This document shows positions 4,693 to 58,389 of a stretch of 64,000 bases of DNA, one piece after another. The translations under genes were made by a program, and so were the position numbers. Location of the stretch: assembly GCA_030018275.1 (NCBI GenBank), contig JASEGB010000003.1, positions 9,600 through 73,599 of the forward strand. The letters run 5' to 3'. The notes beneath the pieces were generated by a model that was given only the letters and a program-made list of their open reading frames with translations, was not told the DNA's origin and did not search any database. The stretch is from Actinomycetota bacterium (lineage in GTDB: Bacteria > Actinomycetota > Aquicultoria > Subteraquimicrobiales > Subteraquimicrobiaceae). How positions within the stretch are numbered: the stretch's first letter is position 1; each line of letters starts with the position of its first letter.

Positions 4693-4720
4693 ATTCCTCT
4701 CCAGGATGCCCGCCGTCCCA

Positions 4721-4915
4721 CAAAAATATGAGCTTAATCTCGATATAATCACTACGCATGTCATAATTTCAAAATTACTGTTTAATGCTCCCCGACGAGT
4801 CGGGGCGACGCCGTCGCTCACACTCGCTCGTGCGAGGCCATGAGCCAAGTTTATGGTTTTATGACTTAACTTAATTACTGTGAACCGTGAACGGTCAACT
4901 GTGAACGGTGAATTA
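4721..4915. repeat. composite intergenic repeat (modules C + E + A)
   Basis: aaaaatatgagcttaatctcgatataat is shared with 24783-24815. The hairpin ccccgacgagtcgggg plus gcgacgccgtcgctcacactcgct...caagtttatgg is shared with 28310-28435. The gtgaaccgtgaacggt module follows. Confidence 0.6.
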
Positions 4916-5071
4916 CGCTTTTGCTTTGGGCTTGAGATTGGAGGTAAAATAGGATTAGTTCCAAACTAGCATACAAAAACTTAAAACAAGCTTTTGACCA
5001 GGTCATTCTAAAATTCTTAAGAATATTGGAATATAAAATGGAAAAATTAGGAAGAAAATGTAAGACATTAT

Positions 5072-14052: not shown

Positions 14053-14226
14053 TTCATTCCCTCCTAATCGAGATAATTCTTGTGATTAGACCAAACAAAT
14101 TTATTGCGGTAAGCAAAGGATACTAAAATGAGAACAGAATAAAAAGAAAATTCTTCCAAATTTAGCTTAAAAATGAATGCGAGTGTTGATAAACTTAAAT
14201 TGTAGAGGCGATAAATTTTTATAGGG

Positions 14227-22699: not shown

Positions 22700-22976
22700 C
22701 TTTAGCTTTCTAAAGGCTGTGAAGGGGAGTAGTAGATTTAGCATTTGTCACAGCGAACCGGGATTGGTGAAAGCCGGGACAGTTTGCCGAATTGAATGTC
22801 GCCCTGGAGCTATCAAGCCCAAAAGAGTGGAAGGGATGTAACTTTTAGTAGGTTTGATCGGTTAGCAGCCGTTACAATGCTATGAGTGCCTCCGTTTAGG
22901 AGGAATTTGGGTGGTACCGCGGAAGAAGAACTCTACGAGTTGTAGACCTCTCGTCCCTTGGATGAGGGGTTTTATT
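22700..22976 (+). promoter_or_regulatory. T-box leader (tRNA-sensing riboswitch) upstream of ilvD
   Basis: Canonical T-box sequence aatttGGGTGGTACCGCGG at 22904-22922, followed by an intrinsic terminator. Confidence 0.6.
22947..22976 (+). terminator. intrinsic terminator of the T-box leader
   Basis: CCTCTCGTCC-CTT-GGATGAGGGG 10-bp stem followed by TTTTATT. Confidence 0.5.
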
Positions 22977-23071
22977 GTATGGTCACCAGACGCAAGATGC
23001 AGGTTGCATATTATAGATATTTTGACGACTTCTGGAAATATCAAGGAAGTCAATGCAAGGGAGGAAGGATC

Positions 23072-41728: not shown

Positions 41729-42025
41729 ATGAGTAAAATTATAGGGGTTACCGAAGCTCGCTCAAAATTAAGGAAGATTCTCGATGAGATTTCGAAAAAA
41801 AGAGAGCCTTACATATTAACGAGGGGAAGCAAACCCGAGGCAGTTATAATTCCATATGAGGAGTATCTGGCAATTGAGGAGCGAACAAAAAAACTCTGGA
41901 ATGAGCGTTTTGAGCTAGCTCTTAGGAAGTCTCGCGCGCTCTTTAACGAGTGGTTGCGCAAGAAGGGTTACGATCCAGAAAAGCTGACAGAGGAAGAGGT
42001 AGAAAGGATAATTCGAAGTGCCTGA
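41729..42025 (+). CDS. type II antitoxin, Phd/YefM family
   Basis: MSKIIGVTEARSKLRKILDEI...PEAVIIPYEEY pattern; 98 aa. Confidence 0.7.
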   Translation: MSKIIGVTEARSKLRKILDEISKKREPYILTRGSKPEAVIIPYEEYLAIEERTKKLWNERFELALRKSRALFNEWLRKKGYDPEKLTEEEVERIIRSA

Positions 42026-42428
42026 GGAGCCGCGGGTTGTCCTCGACACTAACGTTTTTGTCTCCGGCATTCTCTTTGGTGGATTATCGGGTGAGATTAT
42101 TGAATTGTGGCGGGAAGGGGCTTTCAATCTCATCATCTCTCCTGAAACTTTGGCTGAGCTCATTGGAAAGCTAAAGTTTAAATTTGGCCTGCCCAGTGAA
42201 CTTGCCAATGAGTGGCAAGATCTTTTAAGCGAGCGTAGTATCCCCGTTATCCCCGAATACACCACTAAAATCTGTCGCGATCCCGAGGACGATAAGTTCA
42301 TCGACGTGGCTTTGGCAGCTAAGGCTGATTACTTGGTTACAGGAGATAAGGACTTGCTCGTGCTTAAAAACTATCGCGGGGTGAAGATTTTAAAGCCAAA
42401 AGAATTCCTGGCGTTGATGAGAAAATAG
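42018..42428 (+). CDS. PIN-domain toxin (VapC-like)
   Basis: VVLDTNVF N-terminus with acidic PIN residues; 8-nt overlap with the antitoxin. Confidence 0.7.
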   Translation: MPEEPRVVLDTNVFVSGILFGGLSGEIIELWREGAFNLIISPETLAELIGKLKFKFGLPSELANEWQDLLSERSIPVIPEYTTKICRDPEDDKFIDVALAAKADYLVTGDKDLLVLKNYRGVKILKPKEFLALMRK

Positions 42429-42456
42429 ACCATCTGAGCATTTCGTCTTCTTTTTT

Positions 42457-42620
42457 TATGCTGTTAACCATCCACCATCAACAACTACTGTATGTCCCGT
42501 GATGTATTCGCTCTCATCACTTGCTAAAAAGGCGACTGCGTTTGCAATATCATTGGGTTTATATTCACAAAGCCCCCTTTGTCGCACAATAGATATTTTA
42601 CAAGGAGGGCGTTTAATTAT
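42457..42620 (-). pseudogene. short-chain dehydrogenase/reductase (SDR) C-terminal fragment
   Basis: The minus strand encodes ...[34 protein letters not shown], a canonical SDR C-terminus; the upstream part of the gene is absent. Confidence 0.5.
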
Positions 42621-42635: not shown

Positions 42636-42797
42636 CTAGGAATCATCTGCATGGCTTGGCTTTTTGAAGTTCATATATAAAACATCAGCCTCTTTATCGT
42701 ATGCTGTCCAAATCCTTGAATATGGGACTTTCAATAACTCAGGCACAATCCATATTCTCTCAATTCCTCTTGCAAATATTAAGATTGCTCATAGGCA
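42636..42797 (-). pseudogene. DUF2283-like small protein fragment
   Basis: The minus strand encodes ...IWTAYDKEADVLYMNFKKPSHADDS*, resembling the DUF2283 N-terminal motif, with no ATG start. Confidence 0.3.
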
Positions 42798-42819: not shown

Positions 42820-42910
42820 GAGCGCCAGCGAGATTTTGCCTAACGTGTTGAGCGTATCTGAAGTCCAGCCATTAGGCTGGAGTTAGGCGAAGGTGTGAAG
42901 CATCGTAGCC
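42820..42910. repeat. island intergenic repeat R1 (GTTAGGCGA / GGCGAAG motifs)
   Basis: ttgcctaacg, gagttaggcgaagg and ctgttaggcgacgtggcgaa are shared with 47461-47560, 48495-48620 and 51885-51920. Confidence 0.5.
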
Positions 42911-42922
42911 AAATACGCTCTG

Positions 42923-43441
42923 TTAGGCGACGTGGCGAATTATTTCAAGAATATCTTTTACAAGGTTAGGTAATATCATCTTTAGTGTCGAAGATAATTC
43001 CATAGAGGGAAATAGATTCGCCGGTTGAATGGCGAAGATTATGACCGTTTCTGGGCATTCACCTAATTTATTGGAGAGCTCAATCATATTTAATAAATCG
43101 TATTCGTGAGTGGACTGCCCTGAACTTCGTTTGATAGATTTTATATTTTCTGGACTAAAACATCGTTTTTCACCTGGCGAGCCCCCAAAATCTACAGCAT
43201 CAACTATTATTGCAGCATCAAGTTCAGTTAGAGCATGAAGTAAATTCAGACTACTCATTCCTATATCAATAATAAAAACATTTTCAGGCAGGGTTTCATT
43301 CTTCAGTAGTGCCAATACAGCAATACCTACACCATCATCACCCATGAGGCTATTCCCTACTCCAATTATACCTATCCTCTTTGGTTTCTTTGACCTCGAC
43401 CTCGAAAGGGAATCACTGCTGCTACTTACAGCTACTTTCAT
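42923..43441 (-). CDS. hydrogenase maturation endopeptidase (HycI/HyaD family)
   Basis: IGIIGVGNSLMGDDGVGIAV motif; its ATG overlaps the large-subunit stop (ATGA). Confidence 0.65.
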   Translation of the reverse strand: MKVAVSSSSDSLSRSRSKKPKRIGIIGVGNSLMGDDGVGIAVLALLKNETLPENVFIIDIGMSSLNLLHALTELDAAIIVDAVDFGGSPGEKRCFSPENIKSIKRSSGQSTHEYDLLNMIELSNKLGECPETVIIFAIQPANLFPSMELSSTLKMILPNLVKDILEIIRHVA

Positions 43442-44733
43442 ACAAATCGTACCTGTAAATAATGGGTAGAACACGATATGCAAGGATCATATGCCCTAAC
43501 AAGCATCTCCAATTTATGTTCAATTTCATTTCTAGGTTGATCCAGAAGAGTCGGGGCAAAGGCTTCCATATCTTTTTGTATATTTTCGTGATTTTGATTA
43601 GTCGGTATAATATAATTGGCATTGATGCATTTACCATGTTCGTCGAAGGTATAATCGTGAAATAGTATACCACGGGGAGCTTCAACCACACCTATACCGC
43701 GACCAGCCTTTACTACTATTTCCACTTTTTCTTCTTCTAATCCATTATCAAGCAGCCTTTCAATGATGCAAATAGACTCTTCCAAAGAATGGACAACCTC
43801 TACTAATTGTGCGACATTATTCATGAATGGATTAAAACACGGTACCTTCAAACCAAATCTTTCAGCGACTTCTTTTGCTAAAGCCGTCAACCTTGAACTG
43901 CTAAGGTTACATCTTGCTAAAGCACCAACCATATACGAATCTCTATCGTGCTTTGTATGTTTTGCAGTAGAATGCGGCACCACAAATTCGTTTGTGATCG
44001 ATAGGTAATCCACGAGTTCGTGTTTTCCTGTATCTGTAGAGCCTATCATACCATCGTACAAGGCGTACTCCTCGTCTGATATTAAACCAATATACTCGGT
44101 TTCACGGCTGAAGTCGGGTAATTTATCAACATTAGCCGATACAAACCCAGCGACATCCAATGCTGTTTCAATTGCATTCACGAGTCTTGCTTTGAAATCT
44201 ATTAATTCCTTCTCCTCTGGTAGCTTTGTAAAACCGCCGACAATGAAACAGATAGGATGTGTTGTCCTTCCACAAATTAAATCCGATAATTCATTTCCAA
44301 GACGATGAATGTTAATAATTTTGACCACCGCTTCCTTGTGTATCTCAATAAGTGGGAACACACTTCCAACACCAAATAGGTCCGGTGCTACGAGATATCC
44401 AACATGAAGGATATGACTTTGTATATTCTCGGCATGTTTAGTTAATTTTCTGAGAAGCAACGTTTGGTTTGAAATATTAACGCCCATCGCATTTTCTGTA
44501 GCTTTCAGAGACGCCAATGCGTGAGATATTGAACATATTCCGCAGATTCGAGATGCAATGTGAGAAAGCTCACTATAATCCCTCCCAACCATCATTGCTT
44601 CAAAAAAACGAGGGGCTTCTGGGACTTGCCACTGAACAGACAGGAGCTTTCCGTTCTTTGCATCCAGAACAATGTTTCCATGCCCCTCTACCCGCGTGAT
44701 ATGTTCTAATCGAATTTTCAGTTCTTGACTCAT
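43438..44733 (-). CDS. [NiFe] hydrogenase large (alpha) subunit, group 3b sulfhydrogenase type
   Basis: N-terminal RICGICSISH and C-terminal DPCISCSTH Ni-Fe ligand motifs. Confidence 0.8.
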   Translation of the reverse strand: MSQELKIRLEHITRVEGHGNIVLDAKNGKLLSVQWQVPEAPRFFEAMMVGRDYSELSHIASRICGICSISHALASLKATENAMGVNISNQTLLLRKLTKHAENIQSHILHVGYLVAPDLFGVGSVFPLIEIHKEAVVKIINIHRLGNELSDLICGRTTHPICFIVGGFTKLPEEKELIDFKARLVNAIETALDVAGFVSANVDKLPDFSRETEYIGLISDEEYALYDGMIGSTDTGKHELVDYLSITNEFVVPHSTAKHTKHDRDSYMVGALARCNLSSSRLTALAKEVAERFGLKVPCFNPFMNNVAQLVEVVHSLEESICIIERLLDNGLEEEKVEIVVKAGRGIGVVEAPRGILFHDYTFDEHGKCINANYIIPTNQNHENIQKDMEAFAPTLLDQPRNEIEHKLEMLVRAYDPCISCSTHYLQVRFV

Positions 44734-45476
44734 TTGGATATCACCCCCTTATAGCAAAATAGTTCAAACCGATTTAGCGCATCCTCTACCGTGAGACCAT
44801 ATTTTTGCAGGATCTCTAGTTCGGAATCTAAGTTGGGATCTGCCACCAGCCCCCTGCAACCTTTACACTCGTTCCTGTTTGTTGGGCAGATTGCATCGCA
44901 ACCTGCTCGAGTCACAGGTCCAAGACAGAACTTTCCTTCCTCAAATACACAGATATTTTCGCGCTTTTTGCATTCAACACATACAGGATAATTTGGGATT
45001 TCGGGCTTTTTTCCTAGAGCGAGTGAGGTTATAACTTTTGCAAGTTCATCTCTATTTATCGGGCAGCCTGGAACATAATAATCAACTTTAACTACATCAT
45101 CAACTGATTTCGTTGGGAATACATCAAAGTATGGGTTATTCTTTAGATCTGCACCACCATACACCTTCTTCACTTCATTTATTGGAAAACGATTCCTCAA
45201 TGCATTTATGCCACCGATACAGGCACACGCACCCAGCGGTACGAGGATATTTGCACGGCTACGAATTACTTTCAATCGTTCTTCATCTATGGGTCTGGCA
45301 ATAGAGCCTTCGATAAATGCTATATCATAATCATCTGAATGTTCTTTCATAGCTTCTCTAAACGAAACCACATCAACGATGTCGATTAAATCAATTACCG
45401 ATTCTTCAAGATTTATTACCTGAAGTTGACAGCCTTCACAAGATGCGAAATCAAAAAATGCAACCTTCGGTTTCAT
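44730..45476 (-). CDS. [NiFe] hydrogenase small (delta) subunit
   Basis: FASCEGCQLQ proximal-cluster motif. Confidence 0.7.
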   Translation of the reverse strand: MKPKVAFFDFASCEGCQLQVINLEESVIDLIDIVDVVSFREAMKEHSDDYDIAFIEGSIARPIDEERLKVIRSRANILVPLGACACIGGINALRNRFPINEVKKVYGGADLKNNPYFDVFPTKSVDDVVKVDYYVPGCPINRDELAKVITSLALGKKPEIPNYPVCVECKKRENICVFEEGKFCLGPVTRAGCDAICPTNRNECKGCRGLVADPNLDSELEILQKYGLTVEDALNRFELFCYKGVISK

Positions 45477-46306
45477 TATAATGCCTCCTGTAAATCTTTA
45501 ATCTCAGTATAATTGAACACAGGTCCGTCCTGACATACATAAATACCATTAATCTGACAATGCCCACACTTACCAACACCACATTTCATCCTGCGTTCAA
45601 GCGAAAGTATAATATGGTCATCTGGTAAGTCTCTCTCCTTAAGTGATTTTATGACGAATTTGTACATAATTGGTGGACCACAAACTACTGCATAAGTTGT
45701 ATTAATGTCAAAATCAACTTTTGGAATAAGCGTTGTTATAACTCCTACATTGTAATTCCAATGTTCCCCCTCAGGAACTGCATCAACTGTTAAATGGAGT
45801 TCAGTATCTTTTCGTTGGCCCCAGGCTGTAACCTCATTAGTAAAAAGGAGTTCATGGGGTGCCTTACAACCGTATAAGATCGTTACTTTCCTATAATCCG
45901 CTCTATGCTCGAAGACGTAATTAATTAAGGACCGTAAGGGCACAATTCCAAGCCCACCACATATAAACAAAATATCTTTGTCTTTCAAAAACTCTGTATC
46001 AAAACCAATTCCAAACGGCCCTCTAATACCTACTTTGTCGCCTTTTTTCAGTCTATGCATTGCATTAGTAACATTTCCTACCCTACGCACACAAAGTTCG
46101 AATGTTTGGCTTTGGGTAGGTGACGATGAGACAGATATCGGTGCTTCTCCAATACCCATAATAGAGACTTCTACAAATTGACCAGGTTTATGGCCTAGCG
46201 GGTTTCCATCATCAAGCGTGATTTCAAAGAGATTTTCTAACTCCGTAAATCTATTGATATTTTTTATTGTTGCCGCCCTTGGTAGATATATTGAGTCATT
46301 ATTCAT
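45476..46306 (-). CDS. sulfhydrogenase gamma subunit (FAD/NAD(P)-binding, [2Fe-2S])
   Basis: Ferredoxin-NADP-reductase-like fold with CGVGKCGHCQ. Confidence 0.65.
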   Translation of the reverse strand: MNNDSIYLPRAATIKNINRFTELENLFEITLDDGNPLGHKPGQFVEVSIMGIGEAPISVSSSPTQSQTFELCVRRVGNVTNAMHRLKKGDKVGIRGPFGIGFDTEFLKDKDILFICGGLGIVPLRSLINYVFEHRADYRKVTILYGCKAPHELLFTNEVTAWGQRKDTELHLTVDAVPEGEHWNYNVGVITTLIPKVDFDINTTYAVVCGPPIMYKFVIKSLKERDLPDDHIILSLERRMKCGVGKCGHCQINGIYVCQDGPVFNYTEIKDLQEAL

Positions 46307-47394
46307 TCGATCACCTCCTTTAGCGAGTTAAAGACTTTGCATGGGTCTGCAATATCTGGAAGACAACTTGATGCACATCTCCCACACCCAATACACGCAA
46401 TAAATCCAAATTTATCATAAAGGTATTTTCCTTTTCTCATAAACCTATGCCTGTATCTTGCAGCTCTATCCTTTCTGAAGTTTTCTCCGGTGGCAACCTT
46501 TGCAAAATCCTCAAGCAAGCATCCATCCCAAGTTCGAATCCTTTCGCCAGTCTTCAAATTTAGTTCTGTTATATCCTGTACATCGAAGCAGTAACATGTA
46601 GGACACACAAAATTGCAAGACCCACAAGATAGGCACTTTTGTGCATTTTTCTCCCATAGCTCATTATCATAATTTTCTTCTAAAAGTTTAGGCAGTTCTT
46701 CAGATGAAAAATTGAGTTGCTTTTCGAATTTTGATCCTATTTCTGTTTTGATACGTTGAACTTCTCTCGTAGTATCATTATCCGCTTCTGAGACTTTTGC
46801 ATACTTTTCAATAAGATTTTTTCCTTTTATAGAACCGATTTCTATAGCATATTTATCACCGATATTTGTTAACATAAGATCAAAACCACGATCTGTAGTT
46901 GCTGCTCCCATACTGCCTGAAAATGCATATGACGAAACATTTTGTATATTTGTGCCTATAAGGATTGATGCCTCGCGCTTTCTAATGTAATTATAGTCCG
47001 GATTTGAATCTTTAAACACTTTGTCCATCTGTTCAATCGCAATAAGATCATAAGGATGTATGCCGATAATAATTAAAGGCGTGACTTCATTTACCGCTTG
47101 CACCGAAAATTTGCCTGTAAAATCATATCTTAATAATGTTTCAGTTGGCGGCAAAAAATACTTATTAGGCGACAGCATTGTCACATCATACTCAAGTCGA
47201 AGTTCATCAGCTGAATTTAGCGTATCATATATAAATTTATTCCTTTTAGATTTCACTCCTACAACAGTTCTTGAATCATTCTTTATCAGCGTATTAACAA
47301 AGTTTAAGAAATCATCTTTCTTAACGAGTTTCATACCAAATCCTCCCTTATTCTTATCGTGTTTCGCAGCATCCGCATATTTATCTTCTTGCAT
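46303..47394 (-). CDS. sulfhydrogenase beta subunit (Fe-S; AsrA-like)
   Basis: CLSCGSCNFVCPTCYC and CIGCGRC cysteine clusters. Confidence 0.65.
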   Translation of the reverse strand: MQEDKYADAAKHDKNKGGFGMKLVKKDDFLNFVNTLIKNDSRTVVGVKSKRNKFIYDTLNSADELRLEYDVTMLSPNKYFLPPTETLLRYDFTGKFSVQAVNEVTPLIIIGIHPYDLIAIEQMDKVFKDSNPDYNYIRKREASILIGTNIQNVSSYAFSGSMGAATTDRGFDLMLTNIGDKYAIEIGSIKGKNLIEKYAKVSEADNDTTREVQRIKTEIGSKFEKQLNFSSEELPKLLEENYDNELWEKNAQKCLSCGSCNFVCPTCYCFDVQDITELNLKTGERIRTWDGCLLEDFAKVATGENFRKDRAARYRHRFMRKGKYLYDKFGFIACIGCGRCASSCLPDIADPCKVFNSLKEVIE

Positions 47395-47460
47395 TGTTAT
47401 CTACTCCTTTTATTTTAATTTTTTTGAATCCCTACCATATCTCTCTTTAGCCGTCGAATG

Positions 47461-47560
47461 ATTGATAGCGCCATGTCGCCTAACGTTTTGCGGATAAAAG
47501 AAGTTTTTGCGAAGCGAAAATTTGGGTAAAGGCTAAAAGTCTGAACCTTTTATGCTGTGT
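47461..47560. repeat. island intergenic repeat R2
   Basis: gccatgtcgcctaacg...ggataaaagaagtttttgcgaagcg. Confidence 0.5.
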
Positions 47561-47592
47561 TATACGCCGTGCCGTATACCATATCTTCATAA

Positions 47593-48474
47593 CTATTCTT
47601 CCCCCGATATCTTTGAGATTCTATCAAATTCTTCTCTTAGTTTTTTATACGCTTCATCTAATTCTTCTGCTTTACCTTCCAAATTTTTAAAGTGAGTCCT
47701 ATAAAAAACTCGCCATATTTCATCGATCTCGCCAAATCGTTGTGAAAGCCTAACGAGATTTTTCCTCACTTTTTCTGCATCTTCGGAAAGTTTCTTTGCA
47801 TAAGCACCCGCCTTTATAAGTTCGATTTTATGTGAAAGGGTCAGTGGCGATACTACTTGGACTCCATTTTTTGTATAATCTCGTAGCATTTCGAATGCTT
47901 CATTTACTAAGAAATAGTAAACTCCTTCAGAAGGAATATAAGCAAAAGCAAACTCAGCGGATCCCTTTTCTGGACAAACGTAATCATCGGCAATCTTATT
48001 GAGGTGACCTTGGACATCTCTAAGGAATCGTTTTTTGAATTCTTCTCTTTCGTTGGTTTCTTCTATATTTAACATCTTTCCAAAATTATCCAAAGGAAAC
48101 TTAGAGTCTATGCAAATAATCCCCACCGTTGATCTTATGTTCGCATCTGGAGTCTTTCCATCAAGAGTTCTCTCTCTAATACCATACATATCTTTTGGAA
48201 GTTGGTCTGAAAGTATCGTCTCCAGAGAGAGCTCTCCAAAAGATGCCCTTTCTGTTGGTACTCGAAGCATCTGTTCAAAAGATTTGTAACTGTCTCTAAT
48301 ATCCTTAGCATGGCTTTCCACTGCACCTATTTTTTCATCTAATCCCAGCTTTATCCAACTTCTTGATACAGCAGTTTCAATATCCTTCGGCTCAACTCTT
48401 TTACTTCGTAAAATCAAGAATATCAATGCAAACAGAAGCACAACGATAATTATAAGCAAGATTTCCATTATCAT
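47593..48474 (-). CDS. RmuC-domain protein (short form; N-terminal TM, coiled coil, nuclease-like RmuC domain)
   Basis: PDANIRSTVGIICIDSKFPLDNF and FAFAYIPSEGVYY blocks match RmuC conserved regions. Confidence 0.55.
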   Translation of the reverse strand: MIMEILLIIIVVLLFALIFLILRSKRVEPKDIETAVSRSWIKLGLDEKIGAVESHAKDIRDSYKSFEQMLRVPTERASFGELSLETILSDQLPKDMYGIRERTLDGKTPDANIRSTVGIICIDSKFPLDNFGKMLNIEETNEREEFKKRFLRDVQGHLNKIADDYVCPEKGSAEFAFAYIPSEGVYYFLVNEAFEMLRDYTKNGVQVVSPLTLSHKIELIKAGAYAKKLSEDAEKVRKNLVRLSQRFGEIDEIWRVFYRTHFKNLEGKAEELDEAYKKLREEFDRISKISGEE

Positions 48475-48494
48475 ATCACCTACGTTATTATTTT

Positions 48495-48620
48495 AAGCAT
48501 GGCGTATAACCTTTTGGGGATAAAAGAAGTTGCCAAAGGCATTTGGGCGAAGCGTAGCGAAGCCTTTTATCCGCTGTTAGGCGACCCGAAGGGCGAGCCA
48601 CGATAGTGGCGAAGCGTATC
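48495..48620. repeat. island intergenic repeat R3
   Basis: ggataaaagaagtt, three gcgaagcg copies, ctgttaggcgac and gtatcccgcagcc (the reverse complement of ggctgcgggatac at 51888). Confidence 0.5.
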
Positions 48621-48652
48621 CCGCAGCCACCCCTACATCTCTCTCACCATTG

Positions 48653-50077
48653 TTATCCCGCAGCAATTTCTTTTAATCTTCTTTCAAGCATTTTTATTGC
48701 TTTATCTTCAATTTGGTTGGATTTGTCTCTTTTGTCGTATGCTTCAAAAACAAAATTGCCGATTTTATCTCGTATGTCTTTTGGCGGTACTATGATATTT
48801 ATGTCTTCTAAAAGACTTGTATCTCGCTCTCCAATTTCATCTACCACAGCTCCATAGATTTTTCCCTTAATTTGATATTCCCCATAAGGAGAACTTAAGA
48901 AGGCTGCAATATACCCAGAATGTATTTCTGGTTTTATTATAATCCTCAACACATGTTCACTTGCTGCCCAATCTTCCCAACCACTTCTTACAACTCCTAT
49001 TCTTCCAACCGTGCCAGAACGAGTCATTAGAACCCAATCTTTTTTTATCAATATATTTTTGAGATTTCTAGTTCCACTCCAAAGATATTTAACATCCATG
49101 GGTTTTATCTGTGGAATGTGAGAACCTTGTAAGAATGCGACACCTGAACTCGGGTCATCAACATAAGGGCGTTTAAAGCGGGTTGGGATGAATATTTTAT
49201 CTATCACTTCCCTAAATTTCATATCTTCAAATTCTGATTTTGAGAGGTTTTCTTCGATTTGTTGTAAAATCGGTATATGAGACGATGCATCCAACCGCAA
49301 ATTTAAATCACTTGCCTTAAGTTCAAAGCTTTTAACAATTTTCCCCTTATCTCCTTCAAAATACTCAACATTATCTTCATCTATTTTAGGCAAGCCCAAT
49401 TCTGAATATATCATCTCTTCGGCTTTCAAAAGAAGTTCCTGGGCTTCTTCCCTTAATCGGTGGGCTTTTAAAATTTTTTGGTTTATCTCTTCTTCTAATC
49501 CAGGGATGCGAGGGACTGGTATATCGTAAAGATGATGTGGCAAAATGTGGTCAACCGTAATACCAAATTTAGGAGATTTAATAAGTGCTGAGCCAATCCA
49601 AGTTGATAAGAAAGCGTATAGATAACCTCTTATTTTTTCATCAGTGATTACTCTTATCGGATTCGGAGAAATGATAAACTGCTCCAAATATTTTGTTGCT
49701 ATTGTTACTCTTCCAATAGTGCCTGACTGAGAGATGAGCAAATAGCCATTTTTAACCCGCCATTTGTCAGGTTCTGTTAGCTTTCTTATGTCAACTTTTT
49801 TCCTTGCCTTAGGCAAAAAGAATTCTACCTCGGATTGCGTCAAATATGGCTCACCATAATCTGAAAATGGAATGGTTATTTTTAAAGCAGGCATGTAAAT
49901 GTTTTCAACACCAACTAAACCTGAAAGTTTTACAATTTCAGTTTTTTGCGACGCTTTTTCTAAAATTAGTCGTGCAGCAATCACATCTTGAGAGTAAAAG
50001 GAGGCATTTAATCTAAACTCTCCTTCAGCTACCCAGTGGCTTGGCACCTCAACTGTTTGGATTACTGCATCCATCAT
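48653..50077 (-). CDS. hsdS: restriction-modification specificity subunit (HsdS-like, two target-recognition domains)
   Basis: 474 aa with two repeated TRD halves separated by conserved coiled-coil spacers. Confidence 0.7.
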   Translation of the reverse strand: MMDAVIQTVEVPSHWVAEGEFRLNASFYSQDVIAARLILEKASQKTEIVKLSGLVGVENIYMPALKITIPFSDYGEPYLTQSEVEFFLPKARKKVDIRKLTEPDKWRVKNGYLLISQSGTIGRVTIATKYLEQFIISPNPIRVITDEKIRGYLYAFLSTWIGSALIKSPKFGITVDHILPHHLYDIPVPRIPGLEEEINQKILKAHRLREEAQELLLKAEEMIYSELGLPKIDEDNVEYFEGDKGKIVKSFELKASDLNLRLDASSHIPILQQIEENLSKSEFEDMKFREVIDKIFIPTRFKRPYVDDPSSGVAFLQGSHIPQIKPMDVKYLWSGTRNLKNILIKKDWVLMTRSGTVGRIGVVRSGWEDWAASEHVLRIIIKPEIHSGYIAAFLSSPYGEYQIKGKIYGAVVDEIGERDTSLLEDINIIVPPKDIRDKIGNFVFEAYDKRDKSNQIEDKAIKMLERRLKEIAAG

Positions 50078-51873
50078 ACCATTCCCTTCCTTCTAATCCA
50101 TTCTTTAAACATCTCAGCCACCAGGGGAATATGGTCATCAATTGCAGGTTGTCCGTTTGCAGCCAATTCTATTTCTCCTTCTGGCGTGGTCTTGAATACC
50201 GGATTTCCCCTTCGGTCATGTCCCACTTTCTCTGGTATTGCCATGAAAATATCGTAATCCTCTTTTAGTTTTTCTTGTTCTGATGTCTTCTTTTTTAAGA
50301 TGAGAATGCTTGTCTGTGTCCCCGTATGTGGCTCAAAAGTTTCTACTGGCAAATCAACACTTGCTATTATGTAAGTCTTTTTTAGAATCCACTCTCTGAT
50401 CCATATTAATCCAGGATTACTCAAGATGCTGTCAGGAAGAACAATACCCAAAATACCGCCGGGTTTTAGAAAATCTAAACATCGCTCAATAAATAATTGT
50501 TCTGGTGGAAGTGCAGTCCTTGGAGAACCTACCTTGAAAGTGGTTAACTCAAATTGGCTTAATATATCGGGATTGTCTATTACTGCTTTCGTTCCAAACG
50601 GCGGATTGGTTACAACTATATCAAACTCTTCTAAATGCACTTTTCTTTTAGCTTCATCATTCCAATTTGATAATTTTTCAAGAGAGTTAGCATGTACAAT
50701 ATTTGAAGAACCATCACCATGCATAACCATGTTCATTTGAGAGACTTTTACCAAGAACGGGTTAAACTCTATACCATAAAAGTTGGTGTTTACCACATCT
50801 CGAACTAAATCTCTTAATTGGTCGTATCTAAATCCTCGCTTTAAGAACATCTGTTTTATCTTTTGTACGCCTGCTATTAAAAATCCACCTGTCCCAACAG
50901 CTGGATCAAGGATTTTTAACGCTCCTGGACTTGTTAATTTCTCCTCAGGAAATAGTGAAAAGAGCATTTCTATTGCCATACTACAAACATTTCTTGCAGT
51001 GAAAAACTCCCCTCTATCTCCCCTCAAATTAGGACCTACTACTTCCTCGTAAGCTTCACCCTTTACATCTGTCTCAGTATCTACAAAGCTAAATCTCTGT
51101 AACTCTGAAACAATATAACTAAGCACCGAGTCATTTAGTTCAAGTGTCTCGTTCCCTTTAAAAATATATTTGTATCTTTCTTGCACCTTTTGAAAAACCT
51201 TTGTTAATCTATTTCTGACTTTTGAGATGTCTTCACCGGGCAAGATGTAGAATTGTAATGTTGGGTCGTATTGTTCATCATAAACCTTTATAAAAATCAA
51301 TTTTTGGAGTTCTTCAAAAGCCTTATCTTTCTGAAAACCTTGATTAACATATATGTAATTATGAACACGTTTGAACACTTGTTTTAGGTTTACAGCAGGA
51401 ACAAGTCGCCCACTTGTAGGTTTAGGGATAGTAGTTTCTCTTCTTTTAGGTACATCTGGGATCCGAGTTAAAACTCGTTTTCCCCTCTCCTCTACAACCG
51501 TAAACGCTAATCTTTCATTACCTACCCAGAGGGCAAATGCACTATTAGGAGATGCCGCAACATAGCTTCCAAGCTGCCCGACTCCTTCTTTTCTGTCTGA
51601 TGGCTTAACATCTTCGGTTTTTACTTCAGCAATTATGTAGATATTTTCTTGCGTATGTTCTCCATCTTCAGAAAAAATAACAATGTCTGCCCGCTTTTTC
51701 GCCCTTCCCATTTTTATAGGGAACTCAACATCAATATCACTTTTGTTATAGCCATACTCCTCAACAAGACTTCTGACTACATCTTGCCTTATTCTTTCCT
51801 CGGATGTATCTTTTCTTAGTTTCCCAGTAATGAAACACTTTATTTTTCCTGGTGGTATTACTTCTTCAGGCAT
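50074..51873 (-). CDS. N6-adenine DNA methyltransferase (HsdM-like) with N-terminal PD-(D/E)xK nuclease-like (HsdR_N-type) domain
   Basis: VVTNPPFG motif IV and AdoMet motif I (LDPAVGTGGF). The N-terminal 130 aa carry D...EVK (ADIVIFSED...IIAEVK). Overlaps the hsdS start. Confidence 0.7.
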   Translation of the reverse strand: MPEEVIPPGKIKCFITGKLRKDTSEERIRQDVVRSLVEEYGYNKSDIDVEFPIKMGRAKKRADIVIFSEDGEHTQENIYIIAEVKTEDVKPSDRKEGVGQLGSYVAASPNSAFALWVGNERLAFTVVEERGKRVLTRIPDVPKRRETTIPKPTSGRLVPAVNLKQVFKRVHNYIYVNQGFQKDKAFEELQKLIFIKVYDEQYDPTLQFYILPGEDISKVRNRLTKVFQKVQERYKYIFKGNETLELNDSVLSYIVSELQRFSFVDTETDVKGEAYEEVVGPNLRGDRGEFFTARNVCSMAIEMLFSLFPEEKLTSPGALKILDPAVGTGGFLIAGVQKIKQMFLKRGFRYDQLRDLVRDVVNTNFYGIEFNPFLVKVSQMNMVMHGDGSSNIVHANSLEKLSNWNDEAKRKVHLEEFDIVVTNPPFGTKAVIDNPDILSQFELTTFKVGSPRTALPPEQLFIERCLDFLKPGGILGIVLPDSILSNPGLIWIREWILKKTYIIASVDLPVETFEPHTGTQTSILILKKKTSEQEKLKEDYDIFMAIPEKVGHDRRGNPVFKTTPEGEIELAANGQPAIDDHIPLVAEMFKEWIRRKGMV

Positions 51874-51884
51874 ATTCTTACCTC

Positions 51885-51920
51885 CTTTTAAGGCTGCGGG
51901 ATATGTCGCCTAACTTAATA
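51885..51920. repeat. island intergenic repeat R4
   Basis: ggctgcgggatatgtcgcctaac. Confidence 0.5.
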
Positions 51921-52135
51921 TATACGAAATTCGCTTTATGTTCCCAAACTTTAGTATATACGAACTTCGTGTTATTCCCCAATATTGGTTATGCGCTTCA
52001 AATGATAATTCTTGCTATTACCTTCCCCTCAAGATTATATCTAAATGGACTTTTAATCTTTCCTAAATCTAGTAAACCAGTGGTATCAACCGCCATTTCG
52101 TTTTCCTCGTGTAGGTCTGGTATTCCTCGCCAAAC

Positions 52136-52510
52136 TCAGTAACCAGCATTTTTTCTTCGTGTTGAATGCGCCATAGAGAAATGGCACCGGGGAATCGGTC
52201 CGACAAAATGGGCATATTCCCATGGCGGCATAAAGGTAAGGAGGGGCACGGTCACAAGCCCGAAGGCTATAACCATCACGCGTTGACTCCGGTCATAGGC
52301 CGACGGTGTACCGATTTGCCGCCCCAGTGCAGTCACCAGCCACCATACTACCCACAAAACCAGGTAAGCCACTTCCACTGGTCGGTGGAGGAAGGTTATT
52401 CCCCCGCCAGCCACGATAATAATCACACAGGAAGCCGCTATGAAGATAAATCGTCCGATAAGCATCTTGGTCACTTTCAAGCTTCCGACAAATAGGTTAA
52501 TCAAACTCAC
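52136..52510 (-). CDS. hypothetical membrane protein (possibly a C-terminal piece of the adjacent split antiporter)
   Basis: 124 aa, hydrophobic; overlaps the end of the upstream fragment by 14 nt. Confidence 0.25.
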   Translation of the reverse strand: MSLINLFVGSLKVTKMLIGRFIFIAASCVIIIVAGGGITFLHRPVEVAYLVLWVVWWLVTALGRQIGTPSAYDRSQRVMVIAFGLVTVPLLTFMPPWEYAHFVGPIPRCHFSMAHSTRRKNAGY

Positions 52511-53668
52511 TTTGATTGGGAGTGATATCTCCTTTAATCATCATTCTATTGAAGATCCATTTTACCAGTATTGGGGAGCTTAACGAGGTAACTACCGACA
52601 TCACCACCACTGCGTTAAAAATGCCCACCGGAATGATTCCCATTTCTCTCCCCACGACGGTTGCTGTTAAGGTGACCGCCAGTTGAGGTAAGGTCATGAA
52701 GCCCAGTGCAAGCGAGCGATGGATTCCGTAGTTAAAAGTTCTTCCACTTAGCAAACCTGCTGCAATTTTTGCTAGGATTAGTCCCAAAACGATGGACGAT
52801 GTTGTGACCAGAGACTGGGCTTTGCTTATCAGGATGGTTAAATTTGCATTCATCCCCACCACTATTAGAAATATGGGTATGAAAAATCCCCGTCCAAAGA
52901 AGTACACTTCCCTAAGGGCTGGTCATCGGCATGATACTTTAAACCTGCGGATAATGCTATTCCGGCTAGAAAGGCTCCAACTGCGGCATGAATCTTGATT
53001 ATCTCGGCCAAAACTGCTGTGATTAGTAAAATCAAGATGATGAAGTGAAAATCCGAACGTTTGGCGCGATCAAGTTCAAAGAACTTCTTAGCTAATCGAG
53101 GTACTCCTCCCAAGATAACCAGCACAAAAATGACGAATAAAATCCCCAATTGAATGAATTCAGGGCCTACCGCCCTCCCAGCTTTTGCTGCTACTATGAG
53201 TGCCAATATAAGCAGCGCAGCAGTATCTGTTAATACTGTTCCCAGGAAAGCTATGGAAACAACTTCCTCGTTCATCAGTCCACGGTCCTTTAATAAGGGA
53301 TACGTGATGATGGTGTGAGAGGATAAGATTGAACCAAGAATGATGCTACCCAAGAGGTCTAAGTGAAAGTACCTTCCGATCGAAAATCCTACGATGAACG
53401 GAATCGTGAATGTGAATATCCCAAAAGTTACTGCCCTTAAGCCGATTTTTCTGATACGTTCTGTTGGGATATCCAATCCGGCCAGAAATAGCATGTATAT
53501 GAGCCCGATTGAGGCTAAGGCTTGTACGCTCTCACCCAAAGGGAGGATTCTAAAACCATGGGGTCCGACCAGTATCCCCGCAATCATGAAGGCTGTTTCC
53601 AGTGGGATTCTCGTCCGATTAAGTACACTGGAGACGATCAAAATGATGGTGATTAGAACCATAAACAC
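52497..53668 (-). pseudogene. cation:proton antiporter (CPA1/CPA2, Na+/H+ exchanger family), frameshifted
   Basis: Exchanger N-terminus (MFMVLITIILIVS...GLDI) at 53668-52865 continues in another frame at 52907-52497 (YFFGRGFFIPIFLIVVGMNANL...). The frame switch is near 52900-52915, where the downstream frame has a TGA. Confidence 0.55.
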
Positions 53669-53815: not shown

Positions 53816-54061
53816 ATGGGTTTGATGGAGGTAAAGGCAAAAGAGCTCAGAACACGGACTTCTTCTATTATAAAAGCTGTTAAAAGCGGTGAAGAGGTTA
53901 CGATAACCTATCGCGGCAAACGGGTTGGGGTAATTAAACCTCTTTTAGGCAAGAGGAAAACCTTTAATCCAGTTGGCTTTGGTCTTTGGTTAGGACGGGA
54001 AGATTTAAAAGACGTCGAGACATGGATCCGAGAAAAGAGAGCAGCTCGATACGGAAAGTAA
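53816..54061 (+). CDS. type II antitoxin (Phd/YefM-like)
   Basis: MGLMEVKAKELRTRTSSIIKAVKSGEEVTITYRGKRVGVIKPL pattern. Confidence 0.55.
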   Translation: MGLMEVKAKELRTRTSSIIKAVKSGEEVTITYRGKRVGVIKPLLGKRKTFNPVGFGLWLGREDLKDVETWIREKRAARYGK

Positions 54062-54453
54062 TATTCGATACAGACATTCTCATTTGGTATTTTCAGGGGG
54101 ACGAGAGCGCCAAAGCTTTTTTGGCTAATTTTCCATTTCGGTCAAGGACGGTTTCTTCTCTAACTCTGATGGAATTAATTCAAGGTGCACTTAGCAAGGC
54201 TGAGCTGAGAACCATCAAAAAATTCATTGAAGAAAATTTTAGCGAGGTTTTTCACCCAAATGAGGCAGTTTCAAGGCGAGCAATTATTTTGCTGGAGAGA
54301 TATGCTTTATCCCATGGTTTAACCACAGTGGACGCTCTTCTTGCAGCAACTGTCCTTGTTTTCAAAAGCAAGCTTGCGACAGCCAACGCAAAGCACTTTC
54401 GTTTCATAAAGGGGTTAGAGGTTATTCCTTTCGTGCCAGCTTCTTTTGGCTAA
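54022..54453 (+). CDS. PIN-domain toxin (VapC family)
   Basis: IFDTDILIWYF N-terminus typical of VapC; overlaps the antitoxin 3' end. The start is uncertain (54022 or downstream). Confidence 0.6.
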   Translation: MDPRKESSSIRKVIFDTDILIWYFQGDESAKAFLANFPFRSRTVSSLTLMELIQGALSKAELRTIKKFIEENFSEVFHPNEAVSRRAIILLERYALSHGLTTVDALLAATVLVFKSKLATANAKHFRFIKGLEVIPFVPASFG

Positions 54454-54639
54454 CTTCCTCTCTAGCACTTAATGCGCTCAAGCAGCTAATAGCGCTCCTC
54501 TTGAGGATTAGCATTTTGTGTCCGAAAATAATTCTCATTTTCTCCCCAAAATCTTGTTAGCGAACAAGTGTTCTGATATATTAAAAGATACATGATTGCA
54601 AAGGTTTGAAATTTAACCTGTATTATTGACAAGATGGGT

Positions 54640-54906: not shown

Positions 54907-57900
54907 ATGTCAGTGAATTTTGTTCATCTTCACACCCATTCTGAATTTTCCCTCCTTGATGGAGCTGCCCGGATAGAGGACTTAGTTCTCAGGGCTAAGG
55001 AATTGGGAATGCCCGCGCTCGCCCTTACCGATCACGGAGTCATGTATGGGGTCATCGATTTCTATGAGGCCGCCAATAAGCATGGTATAAAGCCCATCAT
55101 TGGCTGTGAGGTTTACGTCGCACCCCGAACCAGGTTTGAGAAATCTCCAAAGAAGGCAGATTCCCCCTATCACCTGGTATTACTGGCTGAGGATAATGAG
55201 GGTTATCGGAACCTCATGCACTTAGTAACTCATGGATTTTTTGAGGGTTTCTACTACAAACCTCGTGTGGACAAGGAGTTACTGGAGAAGTATCACCGCG
55301 GTCTCATAGCCTTGAGTGGTTGTCTAACCGGTGAGGTAGTAAAACTAATTGAAGCCGGGAAGATTGAGCAGGCCAAGCAAGCGGCTTCGAACTTAAGGGA
55401 CATATACGGCGATGGAAACTTCTTCCTGGAGATTCAGGACCAGGGACTCGAGGAACAAAGTTCCGTAAATGAGCATCTCATCAGGATATCTTCTGAAACC
55501 GGGATTCCCCTGGTTGCCACCAACGATGTTCACTACACCAATCAATTGGATAGTACGGCTCACGATGTACTACTCTGCATCCAGACGGGTTCAACCCTTG
55601 AGGAAAAAGATAGATTGAGATTTAGGTCGAATCAATTCTATCTGAAGTCCTCTCAGGAGATGGAGCAGGTATTTCCGGACCTCCCTCAAGTCCTCAAAAA
55701 TTCCTTGGAGATCGCCGAGCGATGTAATGTAACCATGGAACTCGGTAAGATTTACCTGCCCCATTATGAAGTCCCACCGGGCTATGATCTTGATTCCTAT
55801 CTTGAGAAACTTTGTCTGGAAGGCGTCAAGAAAAGATATTCCAAGGTAACACCATCGATAATGGAACGATTAAAGCATGAATTGGAGGTGATAAAGAGGA
55901 CCGGTTTTTCCGGCTATTTCCTAGTGGTCTGGGATTTTGTCAAGTTCGCTAAAGAACATGGAATCAAGGTGGGTCCAGGGCGTGGGAGCGCGGCGGGGAG
56001 CATCGTTGCCTATGTTTTAGGGATAACAAATGTCGATCCCTTGAGGTACGGTTTGCTCTTTGAAAGATTTTTGAACCCCGAGAGGGTGAGCATGCCCGAT
56101 ATAGATATAGACTTCTGCTACGAGCGTCGAGACGAGGTCATCGAATACGTAGCCGAGAAATATGGTCGGGATAAGGTGGCTCAAATCATCACCTTTGGAA
56201 CGATGGCTGCGAGGGCGGCGACGAGAGATGCTGGGAGAGTATTTGGCATTCCCTACGGGAAAGTGGATAAAATTGCCAAACTCATCCCCGATAGTCCCAG
56301 CACCACCATCGAAGAGGCTTTACGAAACGTCCCCGAATTACGCCAAGAATGTGAGAGTGATGAAACCACTAGGCGCATCATAGACACCGCCAGGACATTG
56401 GAGGGATTGGCCAGGCAGGATTCCATCCATGCGGCCGGAGTCGTTATTTCTCGAGATGAGCTCACCAACTACACTCCCTTGCAAAGAAAAGGTACCCCTG
56501 AAACGATTACCCAATATCATATGGATGCCATCAAGAGGATCGGTCTTTTGAAGATGGATTTTCTGGGGCTTCGCACCCTTTCGGTCATCGATAATGCGGT
56601 AAAGATAATCAAGAGAACCACAGGCAATGATTTGGACATAGATGATGTCTCCCTTGAGGATTCAAAAACCCTCGAGATGCTTCGAAGAGGCGAAAGTATA
56701 GGGGTATTCCAGCTTGAAAGCACTGGAATGCGCTCACTCCTAAAGGATTTACAACCCACGACCTTTGAAGATATTATAAATATTTTAGCCCTTTATCGCC
56801 CTGGTCCTTTGGGCAGCAATATGGTTCAGGATTTCGTCGACCGAAAGCATGATCGCAAGCCCATTTCTTACGTCCATCCCTCCCTTGAGTCCATATTGAA
56901 GGATACTTATGGAATCATCGTCTATCAGGAGCAGGTTATGAGGATAGCCTCCGAGTTGGCCGGATTCAGCATGGCCGAAGCCGATATTTTGCGGGCGGCG
57001 ATGAGCAAGAAGAAACCCCATGTTCTGGCGGAGCAAAGAGAAAAATTTGTTAAAGGAGCAAAGTCCAGGGGAATAGATGCCGAAACGGCACAGAAAATCT
57101 TCGATCTGATGGCCTATTTCGCTGGCTATGGCTTCAATCGTGCACATTCAGCCGCTTATGCAGTTATTTCTTATCAAACTGCTTATCTTAAAGCGAACTA
57201 TCCCGTGGAATATATGGCCGCTCTTCTCACATCCGTGATGGGAAATAAGGACAAGGTGGCCCAGTACGTAAATGAATGTCGACGTTTGGGGATAAAGGTC
57301 TTACCTCCGGATGTGAATGAGAGTTTCAAGAGTTTTACGGTGATCGGGGAAACCCGCCTGCCGCAGCGAGGTACGATCGGGCAGGCCATTAGATTTGGAC
57401 TTTCGGCAGTTCGCAATGTGGGCAGTAGCGTCATCGATTCAATTATCCAGGCAAGGGAGAAGGGAGGCTCCTTCAAATCCATTTACGATTTCTGTGAAAG
57501 AGTTGATTTGACCGTGATCAATAAAAGAGCCTTGGAGAGTTTAATCAAGGGTGGAGCCTTCGATTCCTGTGGAGATACTCGAAAACATCTTTTAAGCATT
57601 TACGAACGGGCTATGGAGGCAGGATTGCGCAAGCGAAGGGATAGGGAGGTAGGACAATTCACCTTTTTCGATCTTCATCAAGACGAGTTCCGCGAGACCT
57701 CTGAACAACGCGCTGAAGATGAATTTTCCAAGGAAGAATTGCTCGCCCACGAAAAGGAGATGCTCGGTCTGTACGTGAGCGATCATCCCTTGTTGGGGGT
57801 AGAAAAATTACTTCGGAATCGCACCACAACCTCCATTGGTGAACTGCGGGAGCAGGGGGAAGGGGGTTCCGTTCGCATTGGCGGTATCATCACTCGCATA

Positions 57901-58389
57901 AGCCGCATTACCACCAGGAGAGGTGAAATAATGGCCTTTTTGACCTTAGAGGATCTGGAGGGTTCCGTTGAGGTTGTTCTTTTCCCCACGGTTTATCAAA
58001 AGCACAGAGAATTGCTGAAGGAGGATAGGATAATCGAGGTCAAAGGGCGAGTCGATGTCAAAGAGGAAGATATCAAAGTCATAGGTCAAGAGGTTGAGAT
58101 GTTAAATAATAACAGCAACCGCAGCAGCAAGAGCCCTTTTCCTTTATGTATCAAGTTGCCTCTGAAAAGCTTCAATAGGAAGCTCATTGACCAAATCAAA
58201 GAGATTTTAGAGACCCATCCCGGTTCCTCCCCAGTATACCTCCAACTTACCGAAGAAAATAAGACGACCACTTTTCGATTGGGTGTCAAATATCGCGTGA
58301 AAACTCAAAGTAGCTTATTTGCTGAACTAAAGGAGCTCCTCGGGGAGGACAGCGTTTTTATTGACAATGGTCGCAACCAGCACATATAA
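54907..58389 (+). CDS. dnaE: DNA polymerase III alpha subunit
   Basis: N-terminal PHP domain (HLHTHSEFSLLDGA); 1160 aa. Confidence 0.9.
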   Translation: MSVNFVHLHTHSEFSLLDGAARIEDLVLRAKELGMPALALTDHGVMYGVIDFYEAANKHGIKPIIGCEVYVAPRTRFEKSPKKADSPYHLVLLAEDNEGYRNLMHLVTHGFFEGFYYKPRVDKELLEKYHRGLIALSGCLTGEVVKLIEAGKIEQAKQAASNLRDIYGDGNFFLEIQDQGLEEQSSVNEHLIRISSETGIPLVATNDVHYTNQLDSTAHDVLLCIQTGSTLEEKDRLRFRSNQFYLKSSQEMEQVFPDLPQVLKNSLEIAERCNVTMELGKIYLPHYEVPPGYDLDSYLEKLCLEGVKKRYSKVTPSIMERLKHELEVIKRTGFSGYFLVVWDFVKFAKEHGIKVGPGRGSAAGSIVAYVLGITNVDPLRYGLLFERFLNPERVSMPDIDIDFCYERRDEVIEYVAEKYGRDKVAQIITFGTMAARAATRDAGRVFGIPYGKVDKIAKLIPDSPSTTIEEALRNVPELRQECESDETTRRIIDTARTLEGLARQDSIHAAGVVISRDELTNYTPLQRKGTPETITQYHMDAIKRIGLLKMDFLGLRTLSVIDNAVKIIKRTTGNDLDIDDVSLEDSKTLEMLRRGESIGVFQLESTGMRSLLKDLQPTTFEDIINILALYRPGPLGSNMVQDFVDRKHDRKPISYVHPSLESILKDTYGIIVYQEQVMRIASELAGFSMAEADILRAAMSKKKPHVLAEQREKFVKGAKSRGIDAETAQKIFDLMAYFAGYGFNRAHSAAYAVISYQTAYLKANYPVEYMAALLTSVMGNKDKVAQYVNECRRLGIKVLPPDVNESFKSFTVIGETRLPQRGTIGQAIRFGLSAVRNVGSSVIDSIIQAREKGGSFKSIYDFCERVDLTVINKRALESLIKGGAFDSCGDTRKHLLSIYERAMEAGLRKRRDREVGQFTFFDLHQDEFRETSEQRAEDEFSKEELLAHEKEMLGLYVSDHPLLGVEKLLRNRTTTSIGELREQGEGGSVRIGGIITRISRITTRRGEIMAFLTLEDLEGSVEVVLFPTVYQKHRELLKEDRIIEVKGRVDVKEEDIKVIGQEVEMLNNNSNRSSKSPFPLCIKLPLKSFNRKLIDQIKEILETHPGSSPVYLQLTEENKTTTFRLGVKYRVKTQSSLFAELKELLGEDSVFIDNGRNQHI

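Follow-up and report, generated by a model that had tools for sequence, protein, structure and literature searches.

A Type IIB-like restriction–modification gene pair and a short rmuC gene, probably separate integron-type cassettes, in an Actinomycetota genome

Type IIB restriction–modification (R–M) enzymes are known in two layouts: a single-chain 'RMS' class (PMC11997821) and an 'RM + S' class, in which one chain carries a restriction (R) domain, a multi-helical connector, an EcoKI-like methyltransferase (MTase) and a lone C-terminal helix that packs on a separate specificity (S) subunit (PMC11997821). In BsaXI, residues E73, D90, E105 and K107 are essential for cleavage (PMC11997821). Here, we describe a locus in a 64-kb window (the whole stretch of DNA analysed, 64,000 nucleotides of contig JASEGB010000003.1) from an Actinomycetota metagenome-assembled genome (MAG), in which three genes lie head to tail on the minus strand: one for an MTase with its own nuclease-like domain (M), one for a specificity subunit (S) and one for a short RmuC-family protein (rmuC). 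All positions below are those of this window unless another locus is named. Our reading, which we consider probable, is that the M–S pair and rmuC are two independent cassettes of the integron type in one small array, the former encoding a Type IIB-like RM + S enzyme, and that they do not make up a single system.

Other described elements also bear on the locus. Among curated families, M and S lie closest to MAD2 and MAD5 of the methylation-associated defence system (MADS), which recognises the bipartite site TCAGNNNNTCC. In the MacSyFinder model of the MADS authors, MAD6–8 are mandatory and MAD2 and MAD5 accessory, because of their likeness to parts of R–M systems (10.1101/2023.03.30.534895). 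RmuC-domain proteins, in turn, have a place in defence through ShdA of the Shield system (PMC10270631). Finally, attC sites bound the cassettes of integrons and of attC-site clusters that lack an integron integrase (CALINs), defined as holding two or more attC sites separated by less than 4 kb (PMC9668308). Such arrays often carry R–M and toxin–antitoxin cassettes, and attC sites are shared by those of archaea and of bacteria (Ghaly et al. 2022, PMC9668308); in Actinobacteria, integron elements and CALINs are extremely rare (PMC9024848).

An initial annotation of the locus had described an R–M-like cassette without HsdR, and it placed the three genes correctly: rmuC, S and M are intact minus-strand open reading frames (ORFs). 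M (50074–51873, minus strand) encodes a 599-aa RM subunit made up of a PD-(D/E)xK domain, a helical connector, a gamma-class N6-adenine MTase and a C-terminal helix. The endonuclease domain (residues 25–142; 51448–51801, minus strand) matches Pfam HSDR_N_2 (2e-19), and the MTase domain (residues 268–535; 50269–51072, minus strand) matches N6_Mtase (2e-33) as well as Eco57I; a Pfam search of M found no HsdM_N domain. MTase motifs I (DPAVGTGGF) and IV (NPPF) are invariant in both of our alignments (A1 and A2). Against the TIGR00497 hsdM model, M scores 51 bits, the cut-off being 243.

The nuclease-like domain at the N-terminus of M, also proposed in that annotation, is borne out by the HSDR_N_2 match and by structure prediction. 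An AlphaFold model of residues 1–165, made from 66 diverse sequences, reached a predicted local distance difference test (pLDDT) score of 94.2, and in this model the domain adopts a PD-(D/E)xK nuclease fold. Its best fold match in the PDB is the BsaXI RM chain (E=5e-5), followed by the HsdR fragment 3h1t, a restriction-endonuclease-like protein, Cas4 and Card1. A first model, of the whole protein and from 34 close homologues, was poor (pLDDT 61, below 50 in the N-domain) and was therefore used for a coarse match only; here too, BsaXI came out best (1.9e-20, about 610 aligned columns). The whole-protein model places a C-terminal helix at residues 583–596, corresponding to the lone C-terminal helix of BcgI-like members (PMC11997821).

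Sequence comparisons point the same way. The best solved relative of M by single-sequence search is RM.BsaXI (E=2e-25), and the family profile matches RM.BsaXI (8w0p) with E=1.4e-48 over the connector and MTase, starting in the helical connector. Within the N-domain, conservation of E50, D63, E83 and K85 is 90% or higher at each position among 66 diverse relatives (34–67% identical to it). In the profile alignment, D63, E83 and K85 fall on BsaXI D90, E105 and K107, and E50/D48 on the E75/E73 segment, which makes E50 (or D48), D63, E83 and K85 the putative catalytic residues of M. The link between the N-domain and BsaXI is drawn on the basis of the fold, the HSDR_N_2 match and this motif.

The S subunit (48653–50077, minus strand; 474 aa), whose gene overlaps that of M by 4 bp, contains two Methylase_S stretches according to Pfam and thus has the two target-recognition domains (TRDs) foreseen for it. 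In PADLOC it matches Specificity_II (1.7e-24) and mad5 (4e-25); among PDB sequences it shows a weak match to 'Esub1' (1e-6) and none to S.BsaXI.

M and S evidently belong together. The 22 non-redundant related loci come from Bacillota, Aquificales, Planctomycetia, Dehalococcoidia, Thermoplasmata, Methanosarcinales, Asgard archaea, Methanobrevibacter and others, and in 20 of them the gene directly after M is S; the remaining two are a contig that ends inside M and a remote match of 30% identity. None of the 22 has HsdR next to M, and all-against-all clustering of the flanking ORFs in the related M loci yielded no third shared gene. Homologues of M at 72–91% identity are extremely common, with matches named Actinomycetota, Thermoplasmata and Pseudomonadota. 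Viral contigs gave one distant M–S match (L067, 49%; L numbers denote our loci and contigs), which gives no indication of a pair carried chiefly by phages. P0307 (874 aa) and P0332 (1093 aa), two of the relatives, are single-chain R–M–S proteins with the TRDs fused to the C-terminus.

In some loci, a third gene of the M–S cassette stands after S and before the attC-like site: it encodes a 509-aa protein with a Pfam RNase_HII match (7.8e-14) and occurs in L004 (13275–14804), L005 and L012 (3744–5273), representing two independent genomes. It may be an accessory component in some members of the M–S family.

In layout, the pair corresponds to the RM + S class of BcgI and BsaXI: an N-terminal nuclease, connector and gamma MTase in one chain, a separate S with two TRDs, no helicase, and the catalytic E...D...ExK motif kept in M, for which BsaXI is the top match both by sequence and by fold. 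It differs from BsaXI in that identity to M is only about 20%, the likeness of the N-domains being seen mainly through the fold, and in that the 599-aa M lacks the 'knob' and 'paddle' elements of BsaXI. By this analogy, the M–S pair looks like a Type IIB-like RM + S enzyme, with a cleavage pattern presumed to be that of BcgI and BsaXI. The conserved nuclease fold, RM.BsaXI as the closest solved protein, and an M–S pair that travels alone in about 20 unrelated genomes all support the BcgI-like interpretation, one of several that the initial annotation had put forward.

On the model of BsaXI, an (RM)2S complex would read a bipartite site. As in BsaXI and BcgI, its two MTase domains would methylate one adenine in each half-site with S-adenosylmethionine, and its two tethered nuclease domains would cut unmethylated DNA on both sides of the site at fixed distances. 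No ATP-driven translocation would be needed, and hence no HsdR; with a nuclease domain built into the methyltransferase, the missing HsdR would be explained. That HsdR is missing nearby had been noted before. Pfam scans of 34 ORFs, out of the 47 in the window with 150 aa or more, detected neither HsdR nor a helicase. These 34 include all ORFs above 450 aa except one of 1160 aa (54907–58389), which reads as DnaE from its sequence.

The repeats around the genes tell a second story. Within the 64 kb, the exact 10-mer GTCGCCTAAC has four copies and no more (42922, 47475, 48576 and 51905); a 34-nt direct repeat stands on either side of rmuC, its copies at 47472 and 48498 being spaced by 1026 nt. 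The initial annotation had assigned an island-specific repeat to every gene boundary. This holds on both sides of rmuC (downstream of it, and between it and S) and upstream of M, and fails at the S/M boundary, where there is none because the two genes overlap. The repeats are attC-like cassette boundaries, which accounts for the adjacency of the genes, their low GC content and their near-identity across phyla.

Read in gene direction, each intergenic element starts with an inverse-core-like box RYYYAAC (GCCTAAC or GTATAAC) and ends with a core-like GTTRRRY (GTTAGGC or GTTATAC), with a stem between them. Site A, belonging to the rmuC cassette (47475–47568, minus strand), has R'' GTATAAC and R' GTTAGGC. 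Site B, of the M–S cassette (48501–48585, minus strand), has R'' GCCTAAC, L'' GGATAAAAG, L' CTTTTATCC and R' GTTATAC. Upstream of the M–S cassette, site D (51908–51997, minus strand) ends in the core GTTAGGC and is of a sequence type unlike A, B and C. Site C, which closes a hydrogenase cassette (42835–42931, minus strand), scores 86 bits with the covariance model, has a fold z-score of -5.7 and is conserved in a second MAG (L068). The distances, 1.0 kb from B to A and 3.3 kb from D to B, are within the 4-kb limit for a CALIN.

Across nine sites from the window and other loci, the L''/L' stem has 12 pairs, eight of them with compensatory changes. The full 16-pair structure (four R-box pairs added to the L stem) is paired in 93.8% of cells, as against 79% in shuffles and 20–46% in slid controls. 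Single-strand fold z-scores are unremarkable for sites A, B and D (0.34, 0.20 and -0.80), so these are singled out by comparative and covariation evidence, not by thermodynamic stability. The covariance model finds more sites adjoining M–S in L004, L006, L009 and L010, and others in L029; a G|TTRRRY core lies 35–55 nt upstream of M in L004, L006–L010, L012 and L018.

Scanners that relied on regular expressions and arm complementarity were dropped as too strict or no better than shuffles, and the covariance model was used instead. One of its matches, at 54503–54596 (E=0.27), was rejected on reading since the RYYYAAC and GTTRRRY boxes are missing. Rfam returned nothing at the repeats and only a T-box leader in the window; to our knowledge, Rfam holds no attC family.

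Assuming a crossover at G|TT, as in integrons, sets the limits of three cassettes. The M–S cassette runs from 51913 to 48510 on the minus strand (3404 nt, GC 0.380) and, in gene orientation, starts with TTAGGCGAC and ends with AAAAGG. The rmuC cassette follows from 48509 to 47484 on the minus strand (1026 nt, GC 0.366) and starts with TTATACGCC. The hydB/G/D/A-hycI cassette occupies 47483 to 42844 on the minus strand (4640 nt, GC 0.389), bounded by sites A and C. The GC content elsewhere in the window is 0.461.

Because integration splits the attC site of a cassette, its first bases must complement its own R'' box, and in all three cassettes the match is 10/10. In the M–S cassette, the 5' end together with the last G is complementary at 10/10 positions to its R'' box GTCGCCTAAC. 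The rmuC cassette has the other box type (GTTATACGCC / GGCGTATAAC) and matches its own R'' GGCGTATAAC at 10/10 positions, but the boxes of its neighbours at only 7/10.

The rmuC cassette is also found elsewhere. At 81–90% protein identity, it occurs in a Methanobacteriota archaeon (L025, L026, L032) and on contigs L031, L033 and L035; the upstream DNA is unrelated in each case, with homology setting in precisely at G|TTATACGCC. G|TT junctions are seen in L025, L031, L033 and L035, and the G|TTATA start in L025, L031 and L033. Moreover, L040 and L042 hold a 70% identical relative between GC-rich attC sites of textbook appearance (GCCTAAC...GTTAGCC).

The RmuC protein itself (47593–48474, minus strand; 293 aa) matches most of the Pfam RmuC model (5e-32), has the N-terminal hydrophobic helix MIMEILLIIIVVLLFALIFLILRS and, judging from the sequence, keeps its PD...DSK motif intact; the gene next to the R–M genes does, as first proposed, encode a membrane-anchored RmuC. 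It keeps other company than M and S. Among the 22 M loci, 13 of which reach at least 1.2 kb past S, none has RmuC; the 37 non-redundant loci that encode this short RmuC (58–90% identity; flanks of 3.5 kb or more in 17) lack M/S pairs of this family altogether. The conservation of rmuC–hsdS–hsdM as a block in relatives, suggested earlier as a check, is therefore not observed, and RmuC belongs to a cassette of its own, outside the R–M system.

Taken together, these observations suggest that the M–S, rmuC and hydrogenase cassettes would have been stacked into a small array by site-specific recombination between attC-like sites (crossover at G|TT), presumably through a recombinase. Much of this is familiar from integrons and CALINs, including archaeal ones (PMC9668308): co-oriented ORFs each followed by an imperfect palindrome RYYYAAC...GTTRRRY; cassette ends that complement their own attC; one cassette in different arrays with a G|TT junction; cassettes common to an archaeon and a bacterium; and contents of the R–M and toxin–antitoxin kind. 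What sets the locus apart from typical integrons is a single cassette that holds a 4.6-kb five-gene operon, far above the usual size, and an Actinomycetota MAG as host.

Several points weigh against this interpretation. Neither IntI nor attI was seen: the window holds no integron integrase, with no Phage_integrase match in the 34 scanned ORFs, and since host genes also flank both sides, the array is a CALIN at most. The attC calls were made by motif, covariation and our own covariance model from nine sites, not with IntegronFinder or HattCI; site D is a weak match to that model (E=0.036); and the spacers between R and L boxes are asymmetric (1–3 nt against 5–7 nt), unlike the textbook geometry. 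L068, the one closely related genome, breaks off inside rmuC and so offers no independent comparison of the block. On the enzyme side, the similarity of the N-domain sequence to BsaXI is weak (about 4 bits for the domain alone), and we infer both the nuclease activity and the cleavage pattern of the family by analogy. Finally, the M/S pair of MADS gives no defence alone, mad3, mad4 and mad6–8 being needed too (10.1101/2023.03.30.534895).

The last point means that M and S of the MADS type need not be a complete restriction enzyme, and it is the main reason why we retain an alternative that we rate as unlikely: a modification-only or incomplete M + S, whose N-domain is not a working endonuclease (perhaps serving in regulation or DNA binding instead), or whose partners are encoded elsewhere, as in MADS. 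In its favour, M scores 510 bits against NCBIfam MAD2 over residues 9–571, which includes the N-domain, and S 331 bits against MAD5; in addition, a few family members, such as P0355 and P0327, have lost motif residues. Both scores, however, are under the curated cut-offs (720 and 400 bits), and MAD1, MAD3, MAD4 and MAD6–8 are absent from the window and from related loci. Membership of MADS itself was rejected on these two grounds. More generally, neither the flanks here nor those in about 20 other loci contain MAD6–8 or any third shared gene, the tetrad is at least 90% conserved in 66 proteins – unexpected for a vestigial nuclease – and a mobile cassette of two genes must function alone in every new host.

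Far less probable is a classical Type I system with HsdR elsewhere in the genome, of which only 64 kb are in view. The two-TRD S has the Type I layout, and homologues of M carry the JGI label 'type I restriction enzyme M protein'; yet M has an HsdR-kind nuclease domain in place of HsdM_N, no HsdR adjoins any of the 22 related loci, and the closest solved enzyme is Type IIB.

Least credible of all is the idea, raised by the initial annotation as an undescribed pairing, of a three-gene defence system in which M and S recognise and methylate DNA and membrane-anchored RmuC cleaves it, since its supports – three co-oriented, adjacent genes of low GC content, the use of an RmuC domain in ShdA of Shield (PMC10270631) and a weak PADLOC match to RTasRmuC (1e-5) – are outweighed by zero co-occurrence in the two sets of loci, a complete attC-like recombination site that parts S from rmuC, an rmuC cassette with matching ends of its own that sits beside unrelated genes elsewhere, and a conserved nuclease domain already present in M. 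The pairing of RmuC with R–M genes is not real, and a false lead is removed: there is no new RmuC-dependent restriction system at this locus.

On the two-cassette reading, then, the M–S pair is an uncharacterised member of the Type IIB RM + S group related to MAD2/MAD5 – the literature yielded no characterised member of its clade – and its attC-bounded mobility fits known integron biology. The unusual points are the sharing of cassettes across domains, the actinobacterial host and the operon-sized hydrogenase cassette. As a free-standing counterpart of the MAD2/MAD5 core, the family may help to explain how MADS evolved, and, being widespread and conserved, it could supply new specificities for short-fragment-excising enzymes. 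The locus also lends support to a proposed transfer of genes across domains by integron-type recombination, in that attC-bounded cassettes are shared by an archaeon and an actinobacterial MAG.

A broader synthesis is offered tentatively, and we would sooner doubt than assert it as a whole. The HSDR_N_2–MTase and S proteins would form a compact, self-sufficient Type IIB-like clade, with thousands of members 72–91% identical over bacterial and archaeal phyla, which may spread between domains as an integron-type cassette; the short RmuC would be a mobile cassette derived from the ruvCA–rmuC–uvrB neighbourhood of Dehalococcoidia and may act on its own as a Shield-like membrane nuclease in defence; and the complete five-gene [NiFe]-hydrogenase operon would be a single 4.6-kb cassette. 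If the last part is true, attC-based capture can carry entire metabolic operons into Actinomycetota, a phylum in which next to no integron elements are known.

As to the origin of rmuC, many Dehalococcoidia-like contigs with 64–66% identity (L047, L050, L052–L059, L062 and similar ones) have a conserved ruvC–ruvA–rmuC–uvrB order. This repair neighbourhood is probably the native one of the short RmuC, and the arrangement suggests a native role in DNA repair, with this clade as the source of the cassette-borne copies. Like ShdA and E. coli RmuC, a recombination-limiting protein, the protein has a membrane anchor at its N-terminus followed by an RmuC-family PD-(D/E)xK domain, but its 293 aa compare with 475 positions in the NCBIfam RmuC model and about 524 aa in ShdA, and its score with the NCBIfam RmuC equivalog is only 22 bits (cut-off 810). 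Shield, moreover, is known only from Pseudomonas, whereas the present clade is either housekeeping (ruvCA–rmuC–uvrB) or cassette-borne; a PADLOC scan gave no match to Shield, although the presence of a ShdA model in that release is uncertain. In a cassette, RmuC could be a repair or anti-recombination passenger, or a stand-alone membrane nuclease for defence, like ShdA.

One Dehalococcoidia contig with a non-cassette rmuC (L029/L030) has further features of its own. A 1205-aa MmeI-like Type IIG enzyme lies three genes away from rmuC (1579–5196), and about 5 kb downstream (13863–15643) two attC-like sites (E=5e-14 and 0.02) surround ORFs resembling GIY-YIG and RNase_H_2 proteins.

Other repeats accompany the attC-like sites. 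A second type of attC-like element (ACGAAGTTCGTATATAC...GCGAATTTCGTATATA..G|TTAGGC), present at 51908–51997, in L025 at 7040–7087 and upstream of rmuC in L031, precedes unrelated cassettes in the archaeon and in this bacterium; its arm seems to resemble a XerC-type half-site. A 12-nt perfect inverted repeat, GGCTGCGGGATA / TATCCCGCAGCC, lies at both ends of the M–S cassette, inside the R boxes (51892–51903 and 48617–48628); in a circularised cassette it would lengthen the attC stem, or else it would pair the untranslated regions at the 5' and 3' ends. A third copy stands at the end of the S ORF (48653–48664), and similar motifs occur in L007 and L008.

Between sites A and C (42844–47483, minus strand) lies a complete group-3 [NiFe]-hydrogenase operon, with four subunits and the HycI protease. 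The arrangement is also found in the near-identical MAG L068 (98.6–99.9% nucleotide identity); the nearest other hydrogenase operons (77% amino-acid identity; L069–L071) are not flanked by such sites.

The genes flanking M–S encode hydrogenase subunits, RmuC, a 124-aa ORF without a family match and, next to the array, a Na+/H+ exchanger (52497–53668), whose gene is split into two ORFs and probably a pseudogene. Site D is connected by a 14-nt inverted repeat (93% complementary; 51976–51989 and 52564–52577) with a GTTAAGC core-like sequence in the 3' part of the exchanger gene; this repeat could be a trace of array insertion. Two Phd/YefM–PIN toxin–antitoxin pairs on the plus strand (41729–42428 and 53816–54453) bracket the array, and between site C and the first of them are decayed gene fragments: the C-terminus of a short-chain dehydrogenase/reductase (42456–42587) and a short ORF (42636–42746). 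Apart from the hydrogenase operon, the split exchanger and the two Phd–PIN pairs, the scanned ORFs of the window are metabolic or housekeeping genes. The T-box leader (22710–22961; Rfam RF00230, 114 bits) stands directly upstream of an ilvD-like gene (22958–24742), which heads a cluster for branched-chain amino-acid biosynthesis.

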